From an uncultured Fibrobacteria bacterium (lineage in GTDB: Bacteria; Fibrobacterota; Fibrobacteria; UBA11236): a DNA stretch of 64,000 nt. A model generated the notes under the pieces. That model had not been told where the DNA came from. It did no database searches and saw nothing but the letters and a program-made list of their open reading frames with translations. The DNA lies in assembly GCA_963716395.1 (NCBI GenBank), contig OY970309.1, positions 3,232,001 through 3,296,000 on the forward strand. Reading direction: 5' to 3'. Shown here piece after piece: positions 1-19,445 of this stretch; the stretch's first letter is position 1; every line of letters begins with the position of its first letter. Position numbers and translations under genes: made by a program.

Positions 1-1
1 T

Positions 2-3000
2 TTCAGCAACGGCAAGGCCGGTACTCCCAAGCTCGACACCTTGATTGCGCCACCCGATACGACGCATCCCCAAAGTCAAAAGCTGCTGATGTGGCTGGCC
101 CCGCCCGACAGCGGGACCTCCTTGTTTCATACCGTTGAGGGCAAGACGCTTTCTTTCCGGGTTATGGCCAAGGATTCCAACACCAAAGACAGCACGACTT
201 TGCTGCAGATTCAGAATCTATTCCCCGCCGATTGCGGAGTCCCAAGCTATGACACCACCAGCGGAGCCTTCAGCTTCAAACCCGCCTTTGCCTGCGTGGA
301 TTCGGGAGGCGGTTCGGTAAGCGCCGCTCTCAAGTTCTTGGCCAAAGACCAAAGCCATCCCCCGGTTTACGACACCTTGAGCGTATCGGTTCAAGTGCTC
401 GACTTCAACAGCGCACCCAAGTGGAAAGTGGACACGGTCAGCCTTACCGGCAAACAGGGCAAAAACGTATCGCTGGCTCTCGACAGCCTGTATCTCGGCG
501 ATGCCGAAGGCGACTCGGTGGCTTTCACCGCCTCGCTGGGGGTCATGACGCAAAACCCGCTTGCCTGGAGCTTCACCCCCTCGTTCTCGGATTCGGGCAT
601 GAAAACCGTATCGCTCACAGCCGCCGATAACCATCACCCTCCGGCGTCATCTTCTTTGGCTCTTAAGCTCACCATCCAAGACTCGGTGCGCCCGTTTAAT
701 GTCATTATCACGTCGCCGCAAAACGGCTATGTGACGCGCGACAGTGTCATCGCCGTGCGTTGGAGTGTGAACGGCGCGGTGCAAACCACCAATACCACCG
801 AGCATTTGCTGGAAGGTCAAAACGGGGTGGTACGCAGCTACCATGACAACCTGACGAACGCGACGTATTCGGATTCCATCACGGTGACGCGCGACACGGT
901 GCCGCCGAACAAACCGGTGGTAAGCGCCGTGTCGCCGACCAACAACCCTACGCCCACCTGGGCTTGGAAAACGGGCGGAGGCGGCGACGGTTATTTTCGC
1001 CATCGGCTCGACACGGCTTCCTTCGTCGATACGGTGGGAACGAAAGATTCCTCGTTCACGCCGTCCACCAATCTGGTTGCCGGAACCCATGTTCTCTATG
1101 TGGAAGAGCGCGATGATGCCGGCAATTGGTCGGCTCTGTCCGCCGACTCGGTGCGTATCATCTTGACCGGCCCGGTGGTGGTCATCACTTCCCCAGCCAA
1201 CAATTACGTGACCCGGCAAGCCAGTGTGTCGGTAGCTTGGACGGTGAATGGCATGGCGCAGACGCCAGTGATTAAGAGCCTGGTGGAAGGGCCGAATGTG
1301 CTCAAGGTGACGGGTCAGGATTCGGCCGGGAATCAAGGTTCGGATTCGATTACGGTAACACGGGATACGGTCCCGCCCAATAAGCCGGTGGTGACGGGTC
1401 CGGGGCTGACCAATAGTTTGAAGCCGACGTGGACCTGGCATAGCGGCGGCGGCAACGGCAGCGGGTATTACCGGTTCAAGCTGGATGATACCACGGCATT
1501 CACCGACACCTTGGGATTAAACGACAGTTCCTATACGCCGACCGCGAATCTTTCCAACGGAACCCACACCTTGTATGTGCAGGAACGCGACGCCGTGGGT
1601 AACTGGTCGGTGACAGGCAGCGGCGCCGCCAACGTGGATACCACGCATCCGGCCATCGCCATCACCTCGCCGCCCAACAATTACGTGACCCGGCAAACGA
1701 GCGTGACAGTAAGCTGGACTTTGAGCAATGTGGCGCAGACGCCGGTGATTAAGAACCTGGTGGAAGGGGCGAACACCCTGACCGTGTCGGGAGCGGATTC
1801 AGCGGGGAACAGTGTTTCCGCTTCAATTACGGTCACACGGGATACGGTACCACCCAACAAACCCGTAGTCACGGGTCCGGGGCTGACCAATAATCTGAAG
1901 CCGACGTGGACTTGGCATAGCGGCGGGGACAGCGGCAACGGGTATTACCGCTATAGGTTGGACACCGCGACCTTTACGGACACCACGGGCCTGGCGGACA
2001 GTTCCTATACTCCCGGCACCAACCTCAAACAAGGCCGACATGTGCTTTTCGTCGAAGAACGCGACGTCGCCGGCAATTGGTCGGCCATGGACAGCAGCGG
2101 TATCGCGCAAATCGATACGACCAAACCAGTGGTGAAAATCACATCGCCTGCGAACGGTTCTTCGACCAACGGAGTTACTAATTCCATAGCTGTCGCTTGG
2201 ACGGTAAACGGCGTAGCACAATCTCAAAATGTCACCCAGGACCTGACCGGTCAATCCGGGTCGGTGAAAATAATTCGCAGCGCCACCGATAGCCTCGGTA
2301 ACTACGGTGCCGATTCCGTGATCATTACCGTAGATCGAAGCATGCCGAATGCTCCGATTTTTACCAGCGCACCGAGCAACCCGACCCGAAGCACCACGCC
2401 GGAATGGGATTGGAAATCCGGAGGCGGTGGCGGAAATGGATCCTATCAATACATATTGGATGGAGCGCCGGCAGTTAGCACTACCGCGCTGAAGTTCACG
2501 GCAACCAGCGTGACAACCAGCACCACCGGCACAAACCATACATTTCAGGTGCGCGAGCAGAATAGCGTTGGTACCTGGTCGAATTGGGCGGATTCACTGG
2601 TAGTGGTTAAATCGGCCCCCGCAGCCCCAACTGTGACCGTGAATGCCCCGTTGACAAAGACCCCGTCATGGTCATGGAATACAGTAGCTGGTGGCGATAA
2701 TACCTATCAGTACCAATTGAATACCGGTTCCACTAGCGGTTCCTTTATCCCCATCAACGGTACTTCTTTTTCCCCGACATCAACATTAGCGGATGGCTCC
2801 TATACAGTTTGTGTGGAGGCTCATGATGCATTAGGTTATGGCCCATCGGGATGTAGTTCTCAAACAATTGTCGATAATACAACACCCACTCTTACGATTA
2901 CTGGACCAACGGGTCCGGCAAGTGTGTTTTCAGGTTCTCCAAGTGTAACCGGCACTTTCTCAGAAGCGAATGGACTCAAGTCTGCAACATATTCTTTAAA

Positions 3001-3241
3001 TAATGCCAGCCCCCCGGTTTCTTTTGGTACTCTACCCAGCGGAACAAGTGGGAATTGGTCGATTAATCCTTCATGGAGCGACGGTGGTAAGAATACTTTG
3101 TCTGTGACCCTAACCGACAATGCGAACAATTCCACAACTCAAAATATCACGGTATATAAATATTCCAATGTGGTTTTTGTGCGTAAAGGAGCGCCGGGTT
3201 CCGGTGAAAGGAATTCATGGCAAAATGCATTCGGACAATGA
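2..3241 (+). CDS. Giant secreted/surface protein with tandem Ig-like (Big/FN3-type) repeats; 5'-truncated by the window edge
   Basis: Frame open from base 2. Thr/Ser/Gly/Val-rich with repeated 'ITSP.N.YVTR...W.VNG' and 'DTVPPNKPVV...PTWTW.SGGG' modules. Ends at 'NVVFVRKGAPGSGERNSWQNAF', the usual start of a pectin-lyase-like beta-helix domain, so the stop at 3241 looks premature. Confidence 0.8.
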   Translation, partial: FSNGKAGTPKLDTLIAPPDTTHPQSQKLLMWLAPPDSGTSLFHTVEGKTLSFRVMAKDSNTKDSTTLLQIQNLFPADCGVPSYDTTSGAFSFKPAFACVDSGGGSVSAALKFLAKDQSHPPVYDTLSVSVQVLDFNSAPKWKVDTVSLTGKQGKNVSLALDSLYLGDAEGDSVAFTASLGVMTQNPLAWSFTPSFSDSGMKTVSLTAADNHHPPASSSLALKLTIQDSVRPFNVIITSPQNGYVTRDSVIAVRWSVNGAVQTTNTTEHLLEGQNGVVRSYHDNLTNATYSDSITVTRDTVPPNKPVVSAVSPTNNPTPTWAWKTGGGGDGYFRHRLDTASFVDTVGTKDSSFTPSTNLVAGTHVLYVEERDDAGNWSALSADSVRIILTGPVVVITSPANNYVTRQASVSVAWTVNGMAQTPVIKSLVEGPNVLKVTGQDSAGNQGSDSITVTRDTVPPNKPVVTGPGLTNSLKPTWTWHSGGGNGSGYYRFKLDDTTAFTDTLGLNDSSYTPTANLSNGTHTLYVQERDAVGNWSVTGSGAANVDTTHPAIAITSPPNNYVTRQTSVTVSWTLSNVAQTPVIKNLVEGANTLTVSGADSAGNSVSASITVTRDTVPPNKPVVTGPGLTNNLKPTWTWHSGGDSGNGYYRYRLDTATFTDTTGLADSSYTPGTNLKQGRHVLFVEERDVAGNWSAMDSSGIAQIDTTKPVVKITSPANGSSTNGVTNSIAVAWTVNGVAQSQNVTQDLTGQSGSVKIIRSATDSLGNYGADSVIITVDRSMPNAPIFTSAPSNPTRSTTPEWDWKSGGGGGNGSYQYILDGAPAVSTTALKFTATSVTTSTTGTNHTFQVREQNSVGTWSNWADSLVVVKSAPAAPTVTVNAPLTKTPSWSWNTVAGGDNTYQYQLNTGSTSGSFIPINGTSFSPTSTLADGSYTVCVEAHDALGYGPSGCSSQTIVDNTTPTLTITGPTGPASVFSGSPSVTGTFSEANGLKSATYSLNNASPPVSFGTLPSGTSGNWSINPSWSDGGKNTLSVTLTDNANNSTTQNITVYKYSNVVFVRKGAPGSGERNSWQNAFGQ
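700..2610 (+). repeat. About four intragenic tandem repeats of ~160 aa (~480 bp)
   Basis: caattacgtgacccggcaa occurs at 1201 and 1678 (477 bp apart). The peptide DTVPPNKPVV occurs three times and a fourth unit is more diverged. Confidence 0.85.
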
Positions 3242-3959
3242 CCCACGGCACTTGAAAGCCAAGGGCAAGTATGTCCGGGTTGCAAGTATTGGATAGGCTG
3301 TGGGCACCTACATCGCAGGTTCCGCGAATGGATTTGGAATAAGCACTTCTGCCCAACTATTCGGAGGATTTAGAGTGGAGGTTTGGGCACCGCAGATCAC
3401 GCAGAAAGTGCGAGTCTCATATCCCTACAATTTGACAGGGATATAATTAAGTTCACCAATAATGACGTCTACGTTTCTCGGGAACATTCGGCATACGATG
3501 GTTTTACACTGGTCTAATATCGAGGACCAATGGTTAAAATAGTTGGTAATTAACGACAACAACTGTTAATTGCACGTTAGCAAAATTGTAACATTACCCA
3601 ACTGAAGCGGCGCGAACTCCGCTCATATTATGGCTCGGGAACGATATTTGAAGTTCGTAATTTCTAATATTACAGGAAATATAAATGTGTCGTATGGGGC
3701 GATGGAATACAAGTGGTCACGAATAACAATTTCACATACTCAGATTGAAAACAATCAAACTCAAAATGGTGGAGGAATTAACATTGATGGTGGTGGAACA
3801 ACTTCACTTTATTTGAGCAATGTTGTGTTAACCGGGAATACTTACTGGGATGGAAACCAATATTCTCCTCGACAAATTGGATTATTTACTGTCCCCATGA
3901 CACTTAGTTATGAAACAACCTGTACAATCCAAGATGTCGGGAATACTGAGTATATTTAA
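3242..3959 (+). pseudogene. Frameshifted, AT-rich continuation (beta-helix tip) of the Ig-repeat protein
   Basis: Broken 'W...VGTY'-like text near 3290-3311 and an ORF piece at 3630-3959 with 'NN...NGGGINIDGGG...NVVLTGN' beta-helix/PMP-type repeats. Dense indels suggest either a consensus error or decay. Confidence 0.6.
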
Positions 3960-4059
3960 TCCATTTGTTGATATAATCAATGCGCTTCAATAAAAATTTT
4001 CAGAGAATTTATTCCTGCCCAAAACAAATATCGATTTTGGTGCATAATTTGAGTGGAAA

Positions 4060-4195
4060 TTTTTATCCCTTAGTCGCACCCTCCTTAGGAGATTGCGGCC
4101 TTGAAAAACGGCTATACTCCGCAAGGCAACGGGAAATTACGGGATCGAAGCTCATACAGTCAGGCCAAGTCGACATGGGCGCTTACGAGCCATAA
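4060..4195 (+). pseudogene. Orphan C-terminal fragment with choice-of-anchor-Q-like motif
   Basis: Reads ...IQSGQVDMGAYEP*, matching the D(I/M)GAYE terminus typical of beta-helix surface proteins; there is no credible start. Confidence 0.5.
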
Positions 4196-4201
4196 CCCCC
4201 C

Positions 4202-6799
4202 ATGCCTAATCCCGCCCCCACCCCCGTTGACACCTTACCCTATCCGGCGCCTTGCTGCCGGGATTGCCAATGGAAACCCTGCCGTTACCTGGGTGGCAGC
4301 CCGCGCATACGGGGCTTTCACTACCTCGGCCCCTGGCCCAGGCTGCCGAAGGATTGCCCGGCCTGGCTGAAAAACCAGACACATCTGGATCTCGAAAAGG
4401 TTTTGCAACGGCTGAACCGCAACGAGTTGGAAGAGCTTTACCGCACCGGACCTCCCCGCGTCACGGGATATCCGCTCCGCCCCGAAGATTCTCCCCTTCA
4501 CCTTCTCGCCCACGAAATTCCCCATCACCGGGAATCGTGGCTGGTGGTCGCGCCCGGCTCGCATCTCGACCATGCCGTGCATGCCCTGTACTGGGCCTAT
4601 ACGCGCGCCTTGGCCCGCGCCAACCCTAAAAGGAAAAAGGTCGAGGATGTAGATGCAGCGGCGGCGCAAAGCAAGGAGGCAGAACCGGCGCTTTTGAACC
4701 CCGGTTTTGTAAGCATCGAGGATGAGAAAAAACCCGGCAGTCCCGAAACCACCATCACCGAGGCTGACATCGGAGAGGTGGTGCATCTCAAAGTGGATAC
4801 CCAAGGCTTGCAACCCGCCGATAACATATTGTTCCAGATATTCCTCAAGGGTGAGAACGGGCAGGCGGATGTTTTCATTGAAAACGTATTCGGCAACGCC
4901 GGTAAAACCAAATACGGAAGCGATTGGACCACGCGCGAAGATGACGCCGCCGCGGTGCATTACCATATCGGCGACGGTCATGCGGAAAGAAAATACCGGC
5001 CGGGAAAAGACACCCTCTACTTCATCGCCAAGGTAAAGTCAAAAGGGCTGGAGCAGAGAAGCGGTGCGCTGCAACTGACGAAGACCGAAGAAGCGATTCT
5101 GTATTATTGGCCCGGCGATGCGGATAATGAAGGTGAATATCTCCTGTTGGAAAAAAGCGATGACATCGACGACGTGATGACCGAAGCCGGAACCATGAAT
5201 TCAACTCGTGAAAAACTGATGGAAGCGCGTGCGGCTGCCGGCGTCGATGCCAAGGAAAAAGCCGACAAGGTTTCGGATGCGGCCGAAAAGATGGACTCTT
5301 TGTTGAACGAAGCCGCGCCCGATCCCGAAAAAGCCTTGCTGGAACTTTATCTGGTCAAAAAGGGTGCGCGAAAAGAAAAAAGTCTGAAAAGTCTGATTTA
5401 TATCCGTTCCCATCTCCGTAACGGCAAGCAAGCCCGAGGCCATTGGGCCAAAGAGCGCGACGCCACGGTGCGCAAGCAATTGGAGAAAGCCAAAAAAGAT
5501 GAGGACAAGCGTGTTTCTCAGGAATTTAAGGTCAAGCTTTGGGATTGGCATAAGGAAGAATCGGGATCCTGGTTACCGCACTGGAAATTTGCGCAGAAAA
5601 CCTTTTCATCGGAAAAACCGGCCCAGCCCGGCGAGCGGTTTTCCGGTGCGGCGGAAGCGCAATTCGCACGGTTTTATGCGGGCGCAAAAAGTTCCGCGGA
5701 TTTTGATCTGAAAGACGCCAAGGTCGATTTCGGCGGTTCCGCCGAAGTTTCGGTGTCTTTGGTGCAAGGCAAGGCCAAAGGCACCTGGCAATTACCCAAT
5801 GATCACGGCATCAATCTTTTTCCCAAATTCACCGGAACCGATAAAGCTGAAGCCGCAGCCGTGGGCAAGGAATTGCGACTGCGACTGGCGGTATCTTTGC
5901 AGGCCTATGGGTTCGTGGGAGTCTCGGCTTCAGCGGCCTTGCATTTTCCCAACTTGGATTTGGGCGGCAAAAAAGCCCCGCCTTTGCGTAAGCCTGCTTC
6001 CGATCCAAGCGGGAAATTCGACGCCAATGTTTCCGGCGACGGCCAAGCCTTTGCGGGGGCCTCAGCCGGCGGCGGCGTAGAACTGGATTTGCAATGGGGC
6101 AAAACCGCCCAGTTTTTCGACAGCCTCGGCGATATGGAATTTACCGCGGATGCCTGTTTTGGAGCGGGCGGTGCAATCGGATTTATGATCGGATTCAAAG
6201 ACGGCAAATTTCATATTGAAATGAAGGCTGGTTTGGTGACGGGGCTTGGTGCCAAGGGATTCGTGAACGTGGCCGTGAGTGCCGAAGAAATGCTGAAGAT
6301 ATTGGGCTATTGTTTTAAAAACGTAAATCACCATTATCTCGACAATGTGCAACCCGATGCCTTTGATAATTATGTGGCTTATGGGTTCTGGCTGGCGGTG
6401 AAATACGTTCCGGAATTGCGGGAGTCGTTCGAAGTGTTTACCGGAGCCTCGGCCTTCACCAATTGGCTGGAAACCACGGGAAGCAAAATTTTTGGTAAAA
6501 GCATAAATAAAGATCAGCTGCTTGAATCCCTGCTTCAAAACGACAAGGCACTGCATCAATGTGCACCGCAAACCCTGGGTCAGATTTTGCGGACCATTAT
6601 GGTGAGCCATGAGGATGGGGACGAAGACAAAATCATCCACGTGTTTTCTATTCCAGAATCGGATCATGAATTCAAATGGACGATTCGCTGGGCTTCGGGG
6701 TTGAAAGAGTTGGATCAAGCGGTGCGCATTAACAAACACGTGAGCGATGATTTGAAGAAGAGATCATTGGAAGCGGGGATGGCAAAACTGAAACATTAG
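4202..6799 (+). CDS. Putative polymorphic toxin/effector: Cys-rich N-terminus, Ig-like middle, Gly/Ala-rich membrane-active-like region, variable helical tail
   Basis: 865-aa ORF with Gly/Ala-rich segments (AFAGASAGGG, CFGAGGAIGFMIG, GLVTGLGAKG). Its 3' part is duplicated downstream with alternative tails, each followed by an immunity-like gene. The true stop is probably near 6875 by comparison with 12576-12695. Confidence 0.65.
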   Translation: MPNPAPTPVDTLPYPAPCCRDCQWKPCRYLGGSPRIRGFHYLGPWPRLPKDCPAWLKNQTHLDLEKVLQRLNRNELEELYRTGPPRVTGYPLRPEDSPLHLLAHEIPHHRESWLVVAPGSHLDHAVHALYWAYTRALARANPKRKKVEDVDAAAAQSKEAEPALLNPGFVSIEDEKKPGSPETTITEADIGEVVHLKVDTQGLQPADNILFQIFLKGENGQADVFIENVFGNAGKTKYGSDWTTREDDAAAVHYHIGDGHAERKYRPGKDTLYFIAKVKSKGLEQRSGALQLTKTEEAILYYWPGDADNEGEYLLLEKSDDIDDVMTEAGTMNSTREKLMEARAAAGVDAKEKADKVSDAAEKMDSLLNEAAPDPEKALLELYLVKKGARKEKSLKSLIYIRSHLRNGKQARGHWAKERDATVRKQLEKAKKDEDKRVSQEFKVKLWDWHKEESGSWLPHWKFAQKTFSSEKPAQPGERFSGAAEAQFARFYAGAKSSADFDLKDAKVDFGGSAEVSVSLVQGKAKGTWQLPNDHGINLFPKFTGTDKAEAAAVGKELRLRLAVSLQAYGFVGVSASAALHFPNLDLGGKKAPPLRKPASDPSGKFDANVSGDGQAFAGASAGGGVELDLQWGKTAQFFDSLGDMEFTADACFGAGGAIGFMIGFKDGKFHIEMKAGLVTGLGAKGFVNVAVSAEEMLKILGYCFKNVNHHYLDNVQPDAFDNYVAYGFWLAVKYVPELRESFEVFTGASAFTNWLETTGSKIFGKSINKDQLLESLLQNDKALHQCAPQTLGQILRTIMVSHEDGDEDKIIHVFSIPESDHEFKWTIRWASGLKELDQAVRINKHVSDDLKKRSLEAGMAKLKH

Positions 6800-6870
6800 A
6801 TCTTCGGAACAAGCAGAAAATATCCTCTGGAAATTTAAAAGACTTTTTGAGCAATAATGAGAATCTTTTA

Positions 6871-7701
6871 ATGATGATTTAACATGATTATAGCGATATA
6901 TTTTATATTGTATCTCAATGTGAATGAAACGGAAACTTGCTCAGAAGACAGTAAAAGAAGGTTTAGATAGCTTTTCTTCTTATGTCTGTCAAACAGCATT
7001 AATCTTAATGATGGGTCAGCACATTGGTTAAACCAAATATTTGATGACCAAGAAAGTGAATCGTATACGACATGGGATTTCAAAAGATTGGTATCAAAAT
7101 GGCGATTAAAATTGGAGCAATAATAGAAATACGTGACTCGGGTGTCACGATCGATACTGTTTTCGGTTTTCTATTCAATAATGACATTCAATGATAGAAC
7201 ATTACACCAAAACGCCTGTCAAAGGAAAATGGCCTAAGCCAACGCTTCGATTCAACCGGCGGATTGCTTTTTGAGGGCGAATTCAAAGACGGTGATCAAA
7301 TTGGGTTGCAAAAGGAATTCTGGCGCAAAGGCGTATTGAAAGATGAATCGTTTTACAACGATTCCCAAACTCGGGTGGATTGGGAAAAATCGTGGTATAT
7401 CAGCGGAAAATTAAGGCGAGATATGAAAATTAGTGGCGAGATAAAAGAAATCAAAAATTACGCCCCGAACGGAAAACTGGTTCAGCACACCCACGCCAAA
7501 GCGGCAGATGGGAATCTGATTACTGGCGAAAGTTTCGATCCCGACGGAAAACCCACGGGCAAGGTGACGCAGGGCAACGGCTCGCTGACCACCATTGGTT
7601 TCAACGATTCGACCCTGGTCATGTATTCGAAGTACAGCTATAACTACAAAGACGGGTGGCCGGGGAAGATGAAACAACTATTCCCGCCGCCGCCGAAATG
7701 A
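6871..7701 (+). pseudogene. MORN-repeat (YwqK-like) immunity gene copy 1; 5' half frameshifted
   Basis: Intact 3' half (7264-7701) ends QLFPPPPK. The 5' half aligns by eye to 12692-13030 with many indels. Confidence 0.75.
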
Positions 7702-8438
7702 ATTCGCCGGATGCCTGTTTTGGAGCGGGCGGTGCAATCGGATTTATGATCGGATTCAAAGACGGCAAATTTCATATTGAAATGAAGGCTGGTTTGGTGA
7801 CGGGGCTTGGTGCCAAGGGATTCGTGAACGTGGCCGTGAGTGCCGAAGAAATGCTGAAGATATTGGGCTATTGTTTTAAAAACGTAAATCACCATTATCT
7901 CGACAATGTGCAACCCGATGCCTTTGATAATTATGTGGCTTATGGGTTCTGGCTGGCGGTGAAATACGTTCCGGAATTGCGGGAGTCGTTCGAAGTGTTT
8001 ACCGGAGCCTCGGCCTTCACCAATTGGCTGGAAACCACGGGAAGCAAAATTTTTGGTAAAAGCATAAATAAAGATCAGCTGCTTGAATCCCTGCTTCAAA
8101 ACGATAAGGCGCTGCATCAATGTGCACCGCAAACCCTGGGTCAAATTTTGCGGACCATTATGACTCAATATGAGAAAGGTGACGAAAATCAAATATTACA
8201 TGTATTATCAATTCCCGAATCCGCGCATGAATTCAAATGGACGATTCGCTGGGCTTCGGGTATGAAAGAGTTGGATCAAGCAGTGCGCATTAAAAGGCAT
8301 GTCGGTGACGATTTGAAAAATAAATCTTTGAAAATAGGTACTAAAGCATTACAAGATTTTGGAAAAGAATCCGAAAATTCGGAAACCTTTACGGATAGCT
8401 TGATCGATCTTTATCGTAATTGGAAGCTTTCTCTATGA
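7698..8438 (+). CDS. Orphan toxin C-terminal cassette 2 (alternative tail)
   Basis: Identical protein to the main toxin from DACFGAGG to ILRTIM, then a diverged tail ending IDLYRNWKLSL. The in-frame ATG at 7698 overlaps the upstream stop (ATGA). Confidence 0.75.
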   Translation: MNSPDACFGAGGAIGFMIGFKDGKFHIEMKAGLVTGLGAKGFVNVAVSAEEMLKILGYCFKNVNHHYLDNVQPDAFDNYVAYGFWLAVKYVPELRESFEVFTGASAFTNWLETTGSKIFGKSINKDQLLESLLQNDKALHQCAPQTLGQILRTIMTQYEKGDENQILHVLSIPESAHEFKWTIRWASGMKELDQAVRIKRHVGDDLKNKSLKIGTKALQDFGKESENSETFTDSLIDLYRNWKLSL

Positions 8439-9229
8439 TGAAAATCGCTCTCCCATTTTTGGCATTAACAACCACATTAATTGCTTCGGAAATATGCCGC
8501 GACAGTACAAAAATTGATAGTCTTTTCCGGATATGTATGAGAATTGATTCTCAAGATGGGTCCAAATATGTCGGCCATTACTTTGTTACTAAAAACCGTA
8601 AAATGTTACGAAATGGACTTTCGCAAGCTTGGTATAAAAGCGGACAATTAAAAGGGCGAGTATATTATCACTTCGGCTGCCCAACTGATACGGATTTCAG
8701 ATTTTATCCGGATGGAAAAATAGAGGAAATTACTCCGTATGTTTCTTGTAAAAGTCAAGGGATTTCCCAAAGCTTCGATTCAACCGGCGGATTGCTTTTT
8801 GAGGGCGAATTCAAAGACGGGAAAAAAGTCGGCTTGCAAAAAGAATTCTGGCGTAAAGGCGTACCCAAACATGAAATGTTTTATGATAGCTCAACTTTTA
8901 AGGCTAACGAGGAAAAGTCCTGGTACATCGACGGCAAATTGAGCGAAGAAATAAGCATCGAAAACGGCATCGAAGAGACAAGAGATTACGCCCCGAACGG
9001 AAAACTGGTTCAGCACACCCACGCCAAAGCGGCAGATGGGAATCTGATTACTGGCGAAAGTTTCGATCCCGACGGAAAACCCACGGGCAAGGTGACGCAG
9101 GGCAACGGCTCGCTGACCACCATTGGTTTCAACGATTCGACCCTGGTCATGTATTCGAAGTACAGCTATAACTACAAAGACGGGTGGCCGGGGAAGATGA
9201 AACAACTATTCCCGCCGCCGCCGAAATGA
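8435..9229 (+). CDS. MORN-repeat (YwqK-like) putative immunity protein copy 2, with signal peptide
   Basis: MMKIALPFLALTTTLIAS signal-like start. Repeats WYKSGQLK, FYPDGKIE, FDSTGGLL, WYIDGKLS and YAPNGKLV. ATGA overlap with the cassette stop. Confidence 0.8.
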   Translation: MMKIALPFLALTTTLIASEICRDSTKIDSLFRICMRIDSQDGSKYVGHYFVTKNRKMLRNGLSQAWYKSGQLKGRVYYHFGCPTDTDFRFYPDGKIEEITPYVSCKSQGISQSFDSTGGLLFEGEFKDGKKVGLQKEFWRKGVPKHEMFYDSSTFKANEEKSWYIDGKLSEEISIENGIEETRDYAPNGKLVQHTHAKAADGNLITGESFDPDGKPTGKVTQGNGSLTTIGFNDSTLVMYSKYSYNYKDGWPGKMKQLFPPPPK

Positions 9230-9981
9230 ATTCGCCGGATGCCTGTTTTGGAGCGGGCGGTGCAATCGGATTTATGATCGGATTCAAAGACGGCAAATTT
9301 CATATTGAAATGAAGGCTGGTTTGGTGACGGGGCTTGGTGCCAAGGGATTCGTGAACGTGGCCGCGAGTGCCGAAGAAATGCTGAAGATATTGGGCTATT
9401 GTTTTAAAAACGTAAATCACCATTATCTCGACAATGTGCAACCCGATGCCTTTGATAATTATGTGGCTTATGGGTTCTGGCTGGCGGTGAAATACGTTCC
9501 GGAATTGCGGGAGTCGTTCGAAGTGTTTACCGGAGCCTCGGCCTTCACCAATTGGCTGGAAACCACGGGAAGCAAAATTTTTGGGAATAACGCATACGAA
9601 AAAGGATTTAGCTGCTGGAATCTCTGCTCCAAAACGACAAGGCACTGCATCAATGTGCACCGCAAACCCTGGGTCAGATTTTGCGGACCATTATGACTCA
9701 ATATGAGAAAGGTGACGAAAATAAAATATTACATGTATTATCAATTCCCGAATCCGCGCATGAATTCAAATGGACGATTCGCTGGGCTTCGGGTATGAAA
9801 GAGTTGGATCAAGCAGTGCGCATTAACAGACATGTCGAGTGATGATTTGAAGAAGTAGATCATTAGAAAATAGGTAGCTAAAGCGATTACAAGGATTTAG
9901 CGATAAAGAATACGAAAATTCGGAAATCATTACGGATAGTTTGATGGATCGATTATCGTAATATGGAAGCTTTCACTATGA
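9226..9981 (+). pseudogene. Orphan toxin C-terminal cassette 3; frameshifted after ~9585
   Basis: Third copy of the DACFGAGG block. The tail text is a blend of the copy 1 and copy 2 tails with indels. Confidence 0.75.
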
Positions 9982-10789
9982 TGAAAATCGCTTTACACAA
10001 TTTTTGGCATTAACAACCGCATTAATTGCTTCGGAAATATGCAGCGACAGTAAAAAAATTGATATTCTTTTCAGGAGATGTATGAGAATTGATTCTCAAG
10101 ATGGATACAAATATGACAGGCTATTACTTTTATTAGGCAAAAAACAGGTAAAATGATACGAAATGGGACTTTGGAACAAGCTTGGTATAAAAGCGGACAA
10201 TTAAAATGGGCCGAGTATATAATGGAGTTTGGCTGCCCAACTGATACGGATTTCAGATTTTATGAGAATGGAAATAATAGAGGAAATTACTCCGTATGTT
10301 TCTTGTAAAAGTAAAGGGACTTTCCCAAAGCTTCGATTCAACTGGCGGGTTGCTTTTCGAAGGCGAATTCAAAAACGGTGATCAAATTGGGTTGCAAAAG
10401 GAATTCTGGCGCAAAGGCGTATTGAAAGATGAATCGTTTTACAACGATTCCCAAACTCGGGTGGATTGGGAAAAATCGTGGTATATCAGCGGAAAATTAA
10501 GGCGAAGATATGAAAATTAGTGGTGAGATAAAAGAAATCAAGAAATTACGCCCCGAACGGAAAACTGGTTCAGCAGACCCGCGCCAAAGCGGCAGATGGG
10601 AATCTGATTGCAGGAGAAAGTTTCGATCCCGACGGAAAACCCACGGGCAAGGTGACGCAGGGCAACGGCTCGCTGACCACCATTGGTTTCAACGATTCGA
10701 CCCTGGTCATGTATTCGAAGTACAGCTATAACTACAAAGACGGGTGGCCGGGGAAGATGAAACAACTATTCCCGCTGCCGCCGAAATGA
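9978..10789 (+). pseudogene. MORN-repeat immunity gene copy 3; frameshifted
   Basis: 5' half resembles copy 2 (atgatgaaaatcgct...), the middle resembles copy 1 (GDQIGLQKEFWRKGVLKDES), and the conserved 3' end is present. Confidence 0.75.
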
Positions 10790-10833
10790 ACTACCTCGCA
10801 GTCCGCCTCATGCGGACGGGGCATTAGACCGGA
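10786..10833 (-). mobile_element. Short palindromic element resembling a solo IS200/IS605-family end (copy A)
   Basis: + strand atgaactacctcgcagtccgcctcatgcggacggggcattagaccgga. Inner stem gtccgc/gcggac and outer stem cctcg/cgggg. The minus strand ends GGTAGTTCAT. Confidence 0.5.
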
Positions 10834-10951
10834 ATTTGGAGGTATTGTCGCCGAATCCGCATTTGAATTGTTTGACGGGTGGATATCGATGAAATATGCG
10901 GTGACTATTATTGAAAAGAAGGAGTTCGAACCTTGGGAATTTTCAAAGTAA
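10832..10951 (+). pseudogene. Start-less ORF tail, probable orphan C-terminus of an unrelated effector
   Basis: EFGGIVAESAFELFDGWISMKYAVTIIEKKEFEPWEFSK*. It begins where homology to 13483-13530 ends and stops 2 nt before the ATG at 10954. Confidence 0.45.
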
Positions 10952-10953
10952 AT

Positions 10954-11820
10954 ATGAATCCAAATTATGGTTGGCAAATATTAATACTGGGAGCGATCCC
11001 ATTTGGAATTTTCGCTTCCGTGGCGTTCTTTTTTTTAGGCAATGCTTTTACGACTTGGCGAAAGACGGCGAATGGAATTCGATCTCTCGAAAACCCCTCC
11101 GAGACGGACAGTGCGATTGTCACCGCCGTTCAGGGTCGGTATCGCATTTATTATGCAAATGCGAAAACATATACGAAATCTTGGGCCTATCTGGAATTAA
11201 AAGGGGAATACACGTATGAATCAAAGAAGTATTATGAATATTTCCCAATCGCCTACCTGCGAAAATACTTGTCGGTTTCGGAAGGTTCCGATAAGGGGCA
11301 ATTTGAACATGTAAACGGTGTAGCTGTAATGAAAACTTTTGGGAAAATCTCCGACTGGAGAATTTTCCCATACTATAAGCTCGTTGTCTCCAATAAAGAG
11401 GGTTTGACGAACGACAACAATGTCAATGCATTTTTGCGAGACATTGACACTACTTCGGCTTTAAATATTCCGCAACCTATTTTGAAAATTTACTTCCTGA
11501 AAAAAGACCCAAATTTTACAGATGTTAGAACTAATGCGCTGCCCGTAAAGAAAACTTTAAGGAATATTTTCGTGCTGTTTCCAATCTGGTTAATATTGGC
11601 TTATCCTTTCGTGTTTTGTCTACCCTTCAACGGGTTTAGAAAAAATCTACTCGCGGCGGGTTTTTATTTTCTTCTAATTTACCTAACCTTGCCGATTCTG
11701 AATAAAACGGTTGATTTGGTTTTTAATCGAAGCCGATCATCTGTGAATGGTGCGATGGAATATCAATTTGAAAATGGAAATCTTCGTCCAATCATGAAAG
11801 TTTCGGATAATGTCCAATAA
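10954..11820 (+). CDS. AT-rich hypothetical membrane protein (about 3 TM), candidate immunity protein
   Basis: One N-terminal and two C-terminal hydrophobic helices; ATG at 10954; markedly AT-rich. Confidence 0.7.
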   Translation: MNPNYGWQILILGAIPFGIFASVAFFFLGNAFTTWRKTANGIRSLENPSETDSAIVTAVQGRYRIYYANAKTYTKSWAYLELKGEYTYESKKYYEYFPIAYLRKYLSVSEGSDKGQFEHVNGVAVMKTFGKISDWRIFPYYKLVVSNKEGLTNDNNVNAFLRDIDTTSALNIPQPILKIYFLKKDPNFTDVRTNALPVKKTLRNIFVLFPIWLILAYPFVFCLPFNGFRKNLLAAGFYFLLIYLTLPILNKTVDLVFNRSRSSVNGAMEYQFENGNLRPIMKVSDNVQ

Positions 11821-12580
11821 AACCTTTTACGAAATCTGGGTCCAAGCCCCGGACATCGCATTTTCAGTATTCGTGAACGGGATTGGTTTGCATACGGATC
11901 GATTCCAAGGCTCTTCGGAATGGCGCCAAAGCGTCAATCAGTGGGTGGTGAAAGGTGAAAACAACTGTGCAATCAAGTTTTATGCCGGGCCGAACCAAGA
12001 AGCGCTTGGGCCCGATACCAGTTGTAAGGTAGAAGTCCGTGAGCTCGTGTCAGGCCAATCCGAAAAAAGACTAATAATATCCCGCGAGTGGAAATACGAA
12101 GAAGGGATGCAATGGCCGCAAAGCATTGAATTCACCTTTCCCCTCTTTCCCCCGTTTTCGGCGGATTGGGAATGGACACACGCCGATGTATTGCATGAAG
12201 AGAACTTCAAAGATCCGGGCTTGAAACCCATGGTGGGGAAATTGCACGAAGCCCTGGCGACCAAAGACTATCCGTCCTTAAAGTCTTTTTTGGCAACCAA
12301 AGCAGGTGAACTTGCTTTGGCTTATCAAATTCCATTGGAAAAACGACTCCAGGATCAGGAAGAATTTTTCTCCGACTTTTTCAAAGATCCGCACTGGGGA
12401 ATGCAGCCAATTGATTGGGATAAGGTGATCTATGATGTTCATGCGCAGGGCCGCGTTCTTGAAATCATGTCCGAAGCGGGAAAGCCGTTATTGGCGTCGA
12501 CGGAACTTTCCGGTGATTCAAATTTTCTCTTGAGCCTCTATCTATTCCGCTCACAAGGTGTTTGGAAGCTCGCACGATGA
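11810..12580 (+). CDS. Hypothetical cytoplasmic protein (256 aa), candidate immunity/accessory protein
   Basis: Clean ORF overlapping the upstream stop. Beta-rich N-half (SVFVNG...VNQWVVKGEN) and helical C-half; no signal peptide. Confidence 0.7.
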   Translation: MSNKTFYEIWVQAPDIAFSVFVNGIGLHTDRFQGSSEWRQSVNQWVVKGENNCAIKFYAGPNQEALGPDTSCKVEVRELVSGQSEKRLIISREWKYEEGMQWPQSIEFTFPLFPPFSADWEWTHADVLHEENFKDPGLKPMVGKLHEALATKDYPSLKSFLATKAGELALAYQIPLEKRLQDQEEFFSDFFKDPHWGMQPIDWDKVIYDVHAQGRVLEIMSEAGKPLLASTELSGDSNFLLSLYLFRSQGVWKLAR

Positions 12581-12695
12581 TTTGAAAAAAAGATCACTGG
12601 AAGCTGGAGCAAAACTGTTACTTAACTTCGGAACAAGCAAAAAATATCCTCTGGATTTAAAAGACTTATTCAATAATCATAATCTTTTAATATGA
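12576..12695 (+). pseudogene. Orphan last 39 codons of the toxin (same tail type as the main gene)
   Basis: DDLKKRSLEAGAKLLLNFGTSKKYPLDLKDLFNNHNLLI*. Matches 6746-6875, and its TGA overlaps the ATG at 12692. Confidence 0.75.
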
Positions 12696-13486
12696 AACAT
12701 ATTATAGCGATATATTTTATTTGTATCTCAATGCTGAATGCATCGGAATCTTGCCGAGACAGTACAAAATCTGATAGCCTTTTTCGTGTCTGTAACAGCA
12801 TTAATCTTGATGATGGGTCCAAATCGTTGGACCATTTTTTTATTACCAAGAATGGGAAACGTATACGACATGGGACTTCAATGGATTGGTATAAAAATGG
12901 AAAAATTGGAGCAATAATAAAATACCGACTCGGTTGTACGATTGATACGGTTTTCGGCTTCTATTCTAATGGCAACAAAGAAGAAATTACACCGTATGCC
13001 GCCTGTCAAAGGCATGGCCTAAGTCAACGCTTCGATTCAACCGGCGGATTGCTTTTTGAGGGCGAATTCAAAGACGGGAAAAAAGTCGGCTTGCAAAAAG
13101 AATTCTGGCGTAAAGGCGTACCCAAACATGAAATGTTTTATGATAGCTCAACTTTTAAGGCTAACGAGGAAAAGTCCTGGTACATCAACGGCAAATTGAG
13201 CGAAGAAATAAGCATCGAAAACGGCATCGAAGAAACAAGAGATTACGCCCCAAACGGAAAACTGGTTCAGCACACCCACGCCAAAGCGGCAGATGGGAAT
13301 CTGATTACTGGCGAAAGTTTCGATCCCGACGGAAAACCCACGGGCAAGGTGACGCAGGGCAACGGCTCGCTGACCACCATTGGTTTCAACGATTCGACCC
13401 TGGTCATGTATTCGAAGTACAGCTATAACTACAAAGACGGGTGGCCGGGGAAGATGAAACAAATATTCCCGCCGCCGCCGAAATGA
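12692..13486 (+). CDS. MORN-repeat (YwqK-like) putative immunity protein copy 4, with signal peptide
   Basis: MKHIIAIYFICISMLNAS start, MORN-like repeats, and a 3' half nearly identical to copy 2. Confidence 0.8.
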   Translation: MKHIIAIYFICISMLNASESCRDSTKSDSLFRVCNSINLDDGSKSLDHFFITKNGKRIRHGTSMDWYKNGKIGAIIKYRLGCTIDTVFGFYSNGNKEEITPYAACQRHGLSQRFDSTGGLLFEGEFKDGKKVGLQKEFWRKGVPKHEMFYDSSTFKANEEKSWYINGKLSEEISIENGIEETRDYAPNGKLVQHTHAKAADGNLITGESFDPDGKPTGKVTQGNGSLTTIGFNDSTLVMYSKYSYNYKDGWPGKMKQIFPPPPK

Positions 13487-13530
13487 ACTACCTCGCAGTC
13501 CGTCTCATGCGGACGGGGCATTAGTCCGGA
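13483..13530 (-). mobile_element. IS200/IS605-end-like palindromic element (copy B)
   Basis: Differs from 10786-10833 at only two positions and marks the right edge of the accessory array. Confidence 0.5.
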
Positions 13531-13584
13531 GGGTGAATGAACGACGCCGTCGGACGTCGGTTCGGCTCGGGCGATAAGACTCGA

Positions 13585-15447
13585 TTATTCGAATGACCTG
13601 AAGTCCTTGTCTCCCTCCCCTTTCCGATATTCCTTCCATCCCCCGAAAACCGTGATGTCTTGCCCCAATTCCGCCGCATGGGCCTCGCACAGAAAACCCA
13701 CCGCTTTTTCGCCGTCTTCCAATTCCACGGTGCCGAGGCAAAGCGGTTCTTTGACTTGCCGCAAAAATATTCCCAAGGCCGCATCGCTCAACTCCCAAAC
13801 CTCCACGGCGATGGCCGCCCCGCCGCTGTGGCGGCGCAACAATCCGGGAAAAAGTTTTTCCCCGCTTCGCAGCGCATACAAGCGGTAAACCGGCGCCGTA
13901 CGGCAAGCGCGCACCAAGGTGGCGCCCAATTCCAGCAATTGAGAATTCAAAGGTTGGCCGGACAAATGCAATCCGGCCACCACCACATGCGATCCGGTGG
14001 TTTGAGTTGGACGCGCCAGCGGCGCCGGAACCGGATGAAAAGACTTGCCCATGGGCAGACCTTGCGCCGCATGCAGGTGCGCGCCCAAAATCGCCAGCTT
14101 TTCGTCGTGAAAAGCCGGCGCCATCAAGGTGACCCCGAAAGCCAATCCCCTGGATGTGAATCCGGCCGGCAGGGCCAGGGCGCAGAGATCCAGCAGGTTC
14201 GCGAAATTGGTGTAACGTCCGAGTTGCGTATTGCAACCCAGCGGATCGGCTTCGACCTCGGCCAGGGTAAATTGCTTGGGAGCCGTGGGCAGCAGCAAAC
14301 AAGCCACCGATGCGAAGATCGACTCGGTCTTGCGCCGCAGGGTGCGCAACCGATAATAAGCGCGATATACCTCGCCCGCGCGGAACAAGCCCCCTTGGGC
14401 CAAGACCTGGCGCAACACCGGCAGCACATCTTTGGGATGGGCCGTAACGAATTCCCCGAAGGCAACCCGGCGTTCTTCAATCCACGGGCCTTGATACAGC
14501 ATTCGCGCCGCTTCGGCCAAGGGTTCGAAGTCTATCTCGCGCGCTGTGCCCCCGAGTTTTTCCAGCGCGCCTTTGGCATGGCCGAATAACTCTCCGTATT
14601 CGCCGTCGGGCCAGGCCGCTGGCGGCGGGATGCCGAAAGTGAAGGACCCGGGTAACTCCGAAGTTAAGTCCGGCGCAAGGGCAGTCGGGCCTGCGGGAGC
14701 GGCGCGGCTGAAGGGATCGTCGGCATCCCAGCCCTGCGCGACGCGCAGCACCGAGCGGGCATCGTCGGCATGCAACGCGAAGATCGACACGCAATCCAGG
14801 GATCGGCAGGCGGGAACCACGCCGCTGGTGCTGAGCAATCCGCGCGTGGGTTTGAGTCCCACGATATTGTTGAACGCCGCGGGCACGCGGCCCGATCCCG
14901 CGGTATCGGTGCCCAAGGCGAAAGACACCAGTCCCGCGGCCACGGCCACGGCCGAACCCGAACTGGAACCGCCGGGAATCCAGTCTTTGCCGAAAACGCA
15001 GGCGGGCACGCCGTAGGGTGAACGCGTGCCGACCAGGCCGGTGGCGAATTGATCCATATTGGTTTTGCCCAGGCAAACCGCTCCCGCGGCTTCGAGACGG
15101 CGCACCACCGGCGCCGAGACGGACGGATGGTAGGCAAAGGCCGGGCAACCCGCGGTGGTGGGTAAGTCCTCGACGTCGATATTGTCTTTGACCGCGAAAG
15201 GTATTCCGAACAGCGGGTAACGTTCGAGACCTCCGCCGGATTTCCAGGCGTTTTCCAATGCCAGCAAACGCAGACGCAAGTCTTCCTCGGAAACGCGTGT
15301 AATCCAAATGGCTGCGTCGGCATGGCGGTCGATGCGTGCGGCCAGGGCCGAAAATAAACGGCGCAAATCCAAGGCCCCTTCCGCGAGGCTTTGGTGCAAA
15401 GCGCCGATATCCAAACGTCCACTGTTTGGATCCCAGTCTTGAAGCAT
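13585..15447 (-). CDS. atzF: Allophanate hydrolase
   Basis: Amidase signature: PFAVKDNID, GGSSSGSA, LGTDTAGSGRVPA. C-terminal AH domain 'GLHLSGQPLN...EVW...LGTVELEDG'. Confidence 0.95.
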   Translation of the reverse strand: MLQDWDPNSGRLDIGALHQSLAEGALDLRRLFSALAARIDRHADAAIWITRVSEEDLRLRLLALENAWKSGGGLERYPLFGIPFAVKDNIDVEDLPTTAGCPAFAYHPSVSAPVVRRLEAAGAVCLGKTNMDQFATGLVGTRSPYGVPACVFGKDWIPGGSSSGSAVAVAAGLVSFALGTDTAGSGRVPAAFNNIVGLKPTRGLLSTSGVVPACRSLDCVSIFALHADDARSVLRVAQGWDADDPFSRAAPAGPTALAPDLTSELPGSFTFGIPPPAAWPDGEYGELFGHAKGALEKLGGTAREIDFEPLAEAARMLYQGPWIEERRVAFGEFVTAHPKDVLPVLRQVLAQGGLFRAGEVYRAYYRLRTLRRKTESIFASVACLLLPTAPKQFTLAEVEADPLGCNTQLGRYTNFANLLDLCALALPAGFTSRGLAFGVTLMAPAFHDEKLAILGAHLHAAQGLPMGKSFHPVPAPLARPTQTTGSHVVVAGLHLSGQPLNSQLLELGATLVRACRTAPVYRLYALRSGEKLFPGLLRRHSGGAAIAVEVWELSDAALGIFLRQVKEPLCLGTVELEDGEKAVGFLCEAHAAELGQDITVFGGWKEYRKGEGDKDFRSFE

Positions 15448-15629
15448 ATTGTCAAAATGAGCAATTAGTTCGCCACGGCAGTCTATTTACAAAGAAGCCG
15501 TTTCGCTACCGGAATGCTAAATCCTGTTTTCTTATTGAGACATTAGATGACACTTATTTTCCGATTACAGTTTTTTCGTCGGTCGCGGATAAATGTGAAC
15601 GGATTTGCATGCTTTAAATCGTCGGGAAA

Positions 15630-15646
15630 TTGGTACGGGTGTTGCG
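15630..15646 (+). promoter_or_regulatory. Sigma-54 (-24/-12) promoter
   Basis: TTGGTACGGGTGTTGCG gives GG-N10-GC with a TGGYAC-N5-TTGC consensus, ~35 bp upstream of the ATG at 15681; GAGGAG RBS follows. Confidence 0.75.
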
Positions 15647-15680
15647 TGAATGAATCCTTTTCAAATAAGAGGAGCATGCC

Positions 15681-16679
15681 ATGCACCGCAAGTTGACTCG
15701 GTTCAAAACCACGTTCACCGTTTCTCTGGCGTTATTATGCGCCGGGGTTTGTTCTTCGCGGCTCGAAGCTGCGCCGCTTAAAATCGCCTACAGCGATTGG
15801 CCGGGATGGGTGGCGTGGGATATTGGCGTGCAAAAGGGTTGGTTCAAGGAAGCGGGCGTCGACGTGGATTTCATCTGGTTCGAATACTCGCCTTCGATGG
15901 ATGCCTTCTCGGCCGGCAAGGTCGATGCCGTGGCCGTGACCAACGGTGATGAGATGGTGATGGGATCCACCGGCGCCAAGAGCAAAGCGATTTTGATCAA
16001 TGATTACAGCGACGGCAACGATATGATCGTGGCCAAGCCCGGCATCAATTCGGTGGCCGAACTCAAGGGCAAAAAGATCGGCGTCGAGGTCGGTCTGGTG
16101 GATCACCTGTTGCTGTTGAACGCCTTGCAGTCCGTGAAACTGAAAGACACCGATGTCACCTTGGTGAACATGCCCACCGACCAAACCGCGCAGGCCTTGA
16201 GCAGCGGGCAGGTTGACGCCATCGCCGCGTGGCAGCCCAACAGTGGCCAGGCTTTGATCGCGCTGCCGGGGTCCAAGGCCATTTTCACCAGCGCCAATGC
16301 GCCGGGCCTGATCTACGATGTGCTGGCCGTCAGCCCCAAATCGCTGGCCGAACACCGCGCCGACTGGAAAAAAGTGGTGAAGGTTTGGTTTCGCATCGCG
16401 GCCTTTGTGAAAGATCCCAAGAACCTGGCCGAAGCCAGCAAAATCATGAGCGCGCGCGTCAGCCTCAAACCCGAACAATACGCGGCCTTGATGAAGGGCA
16501 CGCACTATCTGGATAAAAAGGGCGACGTCGAGCATTTCAAAAAAGGCCCGGGGCTTAGTTCGATTTACGGTTCGGGGGATATCGTGAACACCTTCAATGT
16601 CGACAACAAGGTGTACAAGGAATCGCAAGACGTGGCTTCTTATCTCGACCCTTCTTTGGTCATGGAGTTGGCGAAGTAA
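15681..16679 (+). CDS. ABC transporter substrate-binding protein (urea-carboxylase-associated, SsuA/TauA-like; probably guanidine/urea)
   Basis: Signal peptide, [13 protein letters not shown] and DYSDGNDMI motifs; operon context. Confidence 0.9.
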
Positions 16680-16701
16680 TTCGCGTCAACCCGTTGCTCC
16701 C

Positions 16702-18707: not shown

Positions 18708-18711
18708 TTGG

Positions 18712-19422: not shown

Positions 19423-19445
19423 GACCTTGTTCTAGTAGGAGCATT

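Follow-up and report, generated by a model that had tools for sequence, protein, structure and literature searches.

A stretch of 64,000 nucleotides (nt) from an uncultured Fibrobacteria bacterium (bases 3232001-3296000 of the 3.75-Mb contig OY970309.1; this whole stretch is referred to below as the window) carries near its start a gene for a protein of 865 amino acids (aa), followed by partial copies of the 3' end of this gene and by genes encoding repeat proteins of the MORN_2 type. In our view, the locus probably encodes a type VI secretion system (T6SS) effector acting in the periplasm, with exported MORN proteins as its immunity proteins and a series of orphan tail/immunity cassettes behind it. 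The genome carries four such effector loci (locus A is the one in the window), each comprising a full-length gene followed by an array of tail and MORN copies, and at all four of them a MORN-type gene is located directly downstream of the effector gene.

The units of the array in the window share repeats that cannot be due to chance: the segments 6147-6446, 7708-8007 and 9236-9535 are identical in all 300 nt, and near-identity extends to approximately position 6590 (50-nt segments score 49-50 of 50), yielding a block of about 445 bp that is likely to be the upstream recombination anchor. The protein encoded by tail 2 is 89% identical to the last 246 aa of the effector. As follows from the alignment of the four units, variability begins in the tail, over its last ~70-95 codons, and continues through the initial two thirds of the MORN gene, while all four MORN copies end in ~240 nearly invariant nt that run directly into the next tail. 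Hence, since both the 3' end of the MORN gene and the start of the next tail are near-identical, each cassette is bracketed by approximately 700 bp of invariant DNA.

Between the units, the variable parts differ by 10-50% and form a mosaic. Over the tip and the head of the MORN gene, unit 1 resembles unit 4 and unit 2 resembles unit 3; at positions 7264-7460 the pattern switches, so that unit 1 matches unit 3, and unit 2 matches unit 4. The 39-codon remnant is closest to the tip of the effector itself (37/45 and 29/34 aligned bases). Both MORN3 and MORN4 are followed by an array-end flank of about 45 nt that diverges from the sequence at the tail junctions; as this flank is duplicated, the block 10834-13530 looks like a later addition.

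Much of this layout had been proposed in a preliminary description made from the sequence alone. The 865-aa open reading frame (ORF) at 4202-6799 and the 39-codon tail at 12576, the latter read directly, were confirmed, as were the invariant block of ~450 bp and the limitation of the variability to the last ~90 aa of the tail, without swapping of whole domains. Other parts of the description had to be amended. From the two further copies of ~245 codons, the one at 7698 is intact (246 codons) and the one at 9226 is frameshifted; all four MORN copies have apparent leaders, but only two genes are intact, the other two being broken. The coupling of adjacent genes by ATGA overlaps, thought to hold throughout, is present at 7698, 8435, 9226 and 12692, tail 2 being overlapped at both ends, but not at the effector itself: its stop codon TAG occupies positions 6797-6799, and the first MORN-like ATG lies 85 nt further, at 6885.

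The same description had named duplication of a single effector-MORN pair by the assembler as a possible refutation. The contig indeed comes from a metagenome assembly with repeats, and public sequencing runs yielded no reads spanning the array; yet an artefact of this kind is hardly credible, as the units are mosaic and differ by tens of percent in their variable parts, equivalent arrays are present at three other loci, and an orphan tail is also found in one relative from a separate assembly. In the public data, one soil-metagenome run contained 13% of the sampled words, in the form of ten short contigs, none of them bridging a junction, and therefore these runs say nothing about the order of the array or the frameshifts; none of the runs listed for the region is of RNA.

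About half of the cassettes in the window look damaged. The TAG of the effector gene falls approximately 25 codons short of the end point of the related tail remnant, and the DNA 3' of this stop codon has kept similarity to the longer remnant tip. MORN1 resembles MORN4 in three separate frames (genome positions 3238887, 3239038 and 3239108), and there is an in-frame stop. Unit 3 differs from unit 2 by a 5-bp insertion at 9603 and by another 18 small insertions and deletions (indels) up to position 10538, with none in the invariant blocks. How densely these indels are spaced, what sizes they have and that they are limited to the variable parts all speak for real decay rather than random consensus error.

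The other three loci of the genome carry paralogues of the effector. Locus B (genome position 1816986) harbors a paralogue 98% identical to the effector, and its gene, encoding 884 aa, is the only whole full-length gene among the four loci. The paralogues at locus C (1126790-1128997) and locus D (387221-389557), both on the minus strand, are 44-46% identical to the effector, and both genes are frameshifted within the part encoding the helical C-terminal domain; thus, together with the gene at A, whose tip is truncated, three of the four full-length genes look damaged. A search with a 117-aa tail (tblastn) produced nine tail matches at C and four at D, including the tails of the full-length genes themselves, and most MORN copies at these loci, detected with a 256-aa MORN query from locus C, are split over frames. 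The arrays at C and D (G000:C1:1117500-1129000 and 382700-389560; L054, L055) are longer and are built from 117-aa tails.

These lesions lend themselves to another explanation, that the arrays are decaying relics of a once active effector/immunity system in which the intact MORN copies alone remain useful, providing orphan immunity against effectors of neighboring bacteria. It would account for the truncated effector and the broken MORN1 adjacent to it, for the broken tail 3 and MORN3, for the frameshifted genes and split MORN copies at C and D, and for an immunity-like two-gene module in the array (see below), the effector that normally partners it being undetected in the genome. We nevertheless consider it unlikely: locus B retains an intact gene, the identity of the block in three copies points to recent or ongoing gene conversion, and some of the lesions could be consensus errors of a long-read metagenome assembly.

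Conservation is also uneven along the paralogues. Their first ~175 residues are near-identical at all four loci, and in the comparison of A with C, 567 nt of the 5' end (window 4235-4801, G000:C1:1128398-1128964) are 89% alike, whereas the remaining parts are not. Such similarity of the 5' ends in paralogues otherwise only 44-46% identical suggests that the N-terminal module is subject either to gene conversion or to strong constraint.

A profile of the four paralogues was compared with 1.84 billion representative proteins. At E ≤ 0.001 it matched 482 proteins, 62 of them at E ≤ 1e-30; approximately the last 580 residues form the shared core, and other matches share the N-terminal part alone. 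A word-based homologue search retrieved only the paralogues from the same genome and, when given a profile, one further protein. From the 150 matches listed, we selected 45 homologues of at least 800 aa and scanned them against Pfam. The most frequent additional domains were OmpA-like (11 proteins), PG_binding_1 (9) and LysM (9), followed by Phage_GPD, T6SS_HCP and SH3_3 (2 each), while PAAR, DUF2345, Amidase_2, SLT, Peptidase_M23, VasX_N, Phage_base_V, PG_binding_2 and HTH_28 were seen once each, the VasX_N match being below the threshold (25.9 vs 27 bits). Two proteins combine the core with components of the T6SS: P0095 consists of VgrG, PAAR and the core, and P0096, of VgrG, DUF2345 and the core; one source names the latter "Rhs element Vgr protein". 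For 20 homologues, the names given in the sources were "hypothetical protein", "peptidoglycan-binding protein" or "Rhs element Vgr protein", or were absent.

The link to the T6SS is also seen in the distribution of the family. Among 296 genomes of Fibrobacterota, TssC was found in 115 and a match to the family (E ≤ 1e-5) in 57, and a comparison of the two lists by eye places the family in 57 of the 115 TssC-positive and in none of the 181 TssC-negative genomes, although these counts (G000 and G254 included) cover matches to the N-terminal module alone and are not independent, since the genomes are related. The window's genome itself has TssC (436 bits), VgrG (247 bits) and two PAAR proteins. 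In the 11 other genomes of its genus, the family is absent and TssC is present in one; thus, a competition toolkit missing from its close relatives may have been acquired, or retained, by this genome. These 11 genomes are much smaller, 1.9-2.7 Mb vs 3.75 Mb.

The neighborhoods of the effector gene were surveyed at 15 loci of relatives, as the preliminary description had proposed. In ten of them a MORN-type gene is directly downstream of the effector gene (tblastn), and an eleventh, L048, has a Pfam MORN_2 match below the cut-off (23.8 vs 29.6 bits); the remaining four have a CstA gene, an AraC-type regulator or no such gene. At one locus (L049) an effector with LysM is followed by a MORN gene, by an orphan tail of 108 aa and by another MORN gene, and at another (L052) a divergent vgrG gene adjoins the effector gene.

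By inspection, the effector of the window has no signal peptide, while the MORN proteins have hydrophobic leaders. The effector starts with a helical part containing four cysteines (Cys4; aa 1-160), with the pattern CxxCxxxPC...CPA that is kept by the homologues, followed by an immunoglobulin (Ig)-like sandwich (aa 163-316), a helical linker, a beta region that is amphipathic and rich in glycine (aa ~484-692) and, at the C-terminus, a helical domain (aa 694-865). In the AlphaFold2 model (51-row alignment; mean predicted local distance difference test score, pLDDT, 72.6; predicted template modelling score, pTM, 0.48), confidence is high for the Ig-like sandwich, for helices at aa 319-368 and for the helical end, moderate for the N-terminal helical part, and poor for the glycine-rich beta region (aa ~480-690). 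A reading of the motif HEIPH (HExxH, aa 104-108) as that of a zincin was dropped, as homologues of the N-terminal part do not keep it.

No family of Pfam or NCBIfam matched the effector at E ≤ 0.1 and, accordingly, none of the domains Rhs, CdiA, VgrG, PAAR, LXG and MafB was seen in it; a profile search against PDB sequences produced nothing below E 0.2; and a Foldseek search of PDB with the whole model returned only immunoglobulin-type domains (T-cell-receptor Ig), which aligned with the Ig-like part. The best score in the Protein Atlas was 0.85, which is a lead only, and the predicted complex of tail 2 with mature MORN2 had a score of 0.01, giving no verdict. As for the activity, our leading guess, still tentative, is that the core of the effector attacks a membrane. 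The hydrophobic moment calculated for a beta conformation and averaged over the family is 0.33 for aa 484-692, compared with 0.21 in the Ig domain and 0.17-0.23 elsewhere; the invariant residues are mostly glycine and aromatic; and the domain model draws long beta hairpins. Formation of a pore might be envisaged, as a weaker guess.

Several observations weigh against a T6SS effector with such a core, in addition to the two limits on the genome counts given above. The effector in the window carries none of the T6SS marker domains MIX/VasX_N, FIX and RIX (Pfam, E ≤ 0.1). The locus is not beside T6SS genes: TssC is ~79 kb downstream, and the single VgrG match is ~560 kb away. In the beta region, pLDDT is mostly below 50 and the fold matches have root-mean-square deviations of 10.9-24.3 Å, which weakens the idea of a pore; besides, the immunity proteins of the T6SS pore formers Tke5/Tki5 (PMC13133200) and Ssp4/Sip4 (PMC12669606) are integral-membrane proteins according to the available parts of these sources. 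Finally, the system in this genome may be decaying or inactive, judging by the MORN1 pseudogene, the loss of ~25 codons from the effector tip and the frameshifted genes at C and D.

One could assume the same toxin/immunity system released by a route other than the T6SS, such as lysis, vesicles or another secretion system, the T6SS fusions of distant relatives being side branches of the family. This would agree with the absence of any T6SS gene within ~79 kb of the locus, with the lack of MIX, FIX, PAAR and VgrG domains in the window's effector, and with the fact that, of the 45 homologues scanned, no more than 5 or 6 have T6SS domains. On the other hand, the effector lacks a signal peptide, its relatives have fusions to VgrG, PAAR and Hcp and, in one case, a neighboring vgrG, and not a single one of the 181 TssC-negative Fibrobacterota genomes contains the family. 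Thus, release by a route other than the T6SS appears improbable.

Two foreign genes are inserted between MORN3 and the tail remnant. Among 31 other genomes belonging to this taxonomic family, 8 contain matches (E ≤ 0.001) to the 256-aa protein encoded by the second of them, and we examined five of the loci (L063, L064, L065, L066 and L067). In three (L063, L064 and L067) the upstream gene encodes a protein of 763-891 aa that shares the Ig-like module of the effector and differs from it in the C-terminus and in the downstream genes; in L063 and L067, where its start is on the contig, this protein also opens with the cysteine pattern. In L066 the contig end truncates the upstream ORF, and in L065 the contig stops before the upstream gene. 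Between the upstream protein and the 256-aa gene, four of the five loci have a gene of 241-290 aa. The 295-aa protein of the window is encoded at the same position, has no significant similarity to these products and no match among Pfam and NCBIfam families, and is single-copy in the genome. As homologues of the 256-aa gene follow a second class of effectors, whose member was not found in this genome (a tblastn search with the whole effector matched the four described loci only), the pair is probably an orphan immunity-like module of that class.

More generally, 51 of the matches listed for the Fibrobacterota genomes share only the N-terminal module (profile positions ~17-203) and come from ORFs of other lengths. 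Three of the proteins with this module, P0061, P0101 and P0106, continue differently in the alignment and contain OmpA-like and PG-binding modules (Pfam).

Thus, several features by which polymorphic toxins are recognized are present: an N-terminal module common to toxins with different C-termini, an immunity-type gene downstream, and stand-alone C-terminal cassettes with MORN genes of their own. Differences over the whole C-terminal domain were not observed; only the last ~70-95 codons vary. Accordingly, the preliminary reading of the locus as a polymorphic-toxin-like system with orphan cassettes held up, supported by the four loci in the genome and the MORN-type gene in 11 of the 15 neighborhoods, as did the claim that the effector has no recognizable domain of the common scaffolds. 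Of the periplasmic or membrane target proposed there, action in the periplasm is supported by the leaders of the MORN proteins and by the OmpA-like, PG_binding_1 and LysM modules (singly also Amidase_2, SLT and M23) of the relatives.

Taken as a T6SS effector system, the locus could operate as follows. The N-terminal Cys4 and Ig-like module, shared with other effector classes, would load the effector onto the T6SS, and the conserved core, that is, the glycine-rich amphipathic beta region and the helical domain, would attack the membrane, perhaps as a pore; the exported MORN_2 proteins would be the immunity proteins. The effector tip of ~70-95 residues and the N-terminal two thirds of the MORN protein, being adjacent in DNA, would constitute one variable cassette flanked by the invariant 3' end of the MORN gene and by the first ~450 bp of the next tail. 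Homologous recombination in the invariant blocks could then put a stored tip with its matching immunity behind the full-length gene, as at the Rhs, CDI and Vibrio T6SS loci discussed below, and the retained immunity copies would protect against the variants of relatives.

A more specific version of this scheme seems possible, if on balance doubtful: the Cys4 and Ig-like module could be a phylum-specific marker of loading onto the T6SS, common to several effector classes, and in the class studied here the double-anchored cassettes could exchange only the tip by which immunity recognizes a core that attacks the membrane, together with the matching two thirds of the exported MORN protein, the toxin domain being kept. 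If so, specificity would be switched without swapping the toxin domain, and Fibrobacterota would possess a previously unrecognized architecture of T6SS effectors.

The cassette structure also invites a reading without any toxin, in which the protein belongs to the envelope or the cell surface, its tip is varied by cassettes (antigenic variation), and the MORN protein is an exported partner or chaperone. The variation is indeed limited to a short tip, and invariant DNA borders the cassettes at either end, as it does in cassette systems of the pilin type; moreover, a large gene for an Ig-domain lipoprotein is a recurrent neighbor. Still, this reading is very improbable, given the absence of a signal peptide in the effector, the VgrG, PAAR and Hcp fusions of its relatives, the restriction of the family to T6SS-positive genomes, and the antitoxin role ascribed to MORN_2 proteins of the YwqK type in the available parts of the literature.

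The features of the locus are listed below. Its G+C content is 42-55% (positions 2000-14000, the entire locus), compared with ~59-68% elsewhere in the window. No tRNA genes were found at window positions 1-20000, and the frequency of promoter-like and terminator-like sites was not above that in shuffled sequence.

Features of effector locus A (window coordinates)
Feature	Position	Strand	Remarks
Lipoprotein-like gene, 3' part	2..3241	+	1194 aa as a whole (genome 3231657-3235241); bacterial Ig domains; Pfam Big_13, 67 bits
Full-length effector gene	4202..6799	+	865-aa ORF; ends with TAG at 6797-6799
Invariant block in the effector gene	6147..6590	+	repeated at 7708-8151 and 9236-9679
MORN1	6885..7701	+	pseudogene
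Orphan tail 2	7698..8438	+	intact, 246 codons; ORF 7656-8438, ATG at 7698
MORN2	8435..9229	+	264 aa, intact; hydrophobic N-terminal leader; Pfam MORN_2, 52.6 bits
Orphan tail 3	9226..~9960	+	pseudogene, frame broken
MORN3	~9962..10789	+	pseudogene; pieces across several frames
Copy of the array-end flank	10786..10833	+	short ORF MNYLAVRLMRTGH; aligns with 13483-13530
Inserted gene 1	10933..11820	+	295 aa, hydrophobic segments
Inserted gene 2	11810..12580	+	256 aa
Tail-tip remnant	12576..12695	+	39 codons (12576-12692), stop codon 12693-12695; ATGA-coupled to MORN4
MORN4	12692..13486	+	264 aa, intact; hydrophobic N-terminal leader; Pfam MORN_2, 48.1 bits
Array-end flank	13483..13530	+	by sequence alignment

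The lipoprotein gene upstream of the effector gene has a 95.8% identical copy in the same place at locus B, and an Ig-domain lipoprotein gene is found beside the effector gene in 5 of the 15 loci of relatives (L039, L040, L044, L045 and L050; tblastn). Genes of this kind encode 1000-1400 aa and also adjoin effector loci A, B and D of the window's genome. Between the lipoprotein and effector genes of the window there are two small ORFs of 109 and 71 aa (3630-4195), neither having a convincing family match; they fall in a 1.8-kb stretch without a counterpart at locus B.

If these conclusions hold, a large unnamed family (482 representative clusters) gains a testable role as a T6SS weapon in a phylum where interbacterial competition appears little studied, the phylum being mentioned once in the single paper that a literature search on this subject returned. 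The effector tips and the heads of the immunity proteins form a natural series that could be used to map how a repeat-protein immunity recognizes its toxin, and further effectors could be sought in Fibrobacterota genomes by means of the shared N-terminal module. The decay in the window's genome, in turn, is a reminder that such arrays may serve mainly as stores of immunity.

Orphan tail/immunity modules are known at Rhs loci and at loci of contact-dependent growth inhibition (CDI). The array described here resembles the orphan arrays of T6SS, Rhs and CDI systems in that truncated 3' copies, accompanied by immunity genes of their own, come after a full-length toxin gene, and in that recombination could make use of common sequence located upstream of the variable part. 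It differs from them in that the gene has no Rhs, CdiA or VgrG scaffold and only a tip of ~70-95 residues varies; furthermore, as the 3' third of the immunity gene is also invariant, homology is available on both sides of the cassette, unlike in arrays of the Rhs/CDI type. For Vibrio cholerae, orphan T6SS effector/immunity arrays and their sequential displacement are described in the available part of PMC5361080.

Among T6SS effectors, one of the closest known groups is that of BTH_I2691, VasX and Tke5 (NF041559), large pore-forming proteins that act from the periplasm, as stated in the available part of PMC13133200. By the same partial source, this group resembles the family studied here in its fusion partners (LysM, PAAR, VgrG, DUF2345 and MIX/VasX_N) and in the immunity gene following the effector gene. 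The order of domains is different: in BTH_I2691, MIX is followed by a helical part and a beta-rich part with a colicin-like membrane domain (PMC13133200, available text), whereas the effector of the window has Ig-like, helical and beta parts and a helical end. The immunity proteins of BTH_I2691 are, in that text, integral-membrane proteins, while the MORN_2 proteins of the window appear exported and soluble, and NF041559 has no match in the window's genome at E ≤ 10. Ssp4 is described in the available part of PMC12669606 as a smaller helical protein with a membrane immunity protein. The TseVF-TsiVF pair of Vibrio fluvialis is similar by description, as it combines an N-terminal peptidoglycan-binding LysM domain with a helical C-terminal region responsible for killing from the periplasm, and TsiVF binds TseVF directly via a "TRP-like domain" (PMC12861213, available part). 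The same text places its homologues mainly in Vibrio and related genera, always with a Tap adaptor gene. No Tap-type adaptor gene stood out among the scanned neighbors of our family, although no dedicated search was made and DUF4123 was not searched for.

A further parallel is provided by YwqK, a cytoplasmic protein whose partner is a deaminase toxin exported by type VII secretion. Unlike YwqK, the MORN proteins of the window carry leaders, and their toxin is unrelated. The common trait is the position of a MORN_2 repeat protein gene directly after a polymorphic toxin gene: the YwqJ-YwqK pair of Bacillus subtilis consists of an LXG toxin and an antitoxin of the MORN_2 type, according to the available parts of PMC8321402 and of a 2026 preprint. 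The term polymorphic toxin system is used here in the sense of Zhang et al. 2012 (PMC3482391), in the main text of which MORN was not found. A literature search on the effector family, with supplementary files outside its scope, found no paper. Thus, the preliminary claim of an undescribed system stands for the effector family, which is unnamed and included in neither Pfam nor NCBIfam, but not for the arrangement of the genes: the layout of the system is of a known kind, and the family that it carries is large and unnamed.

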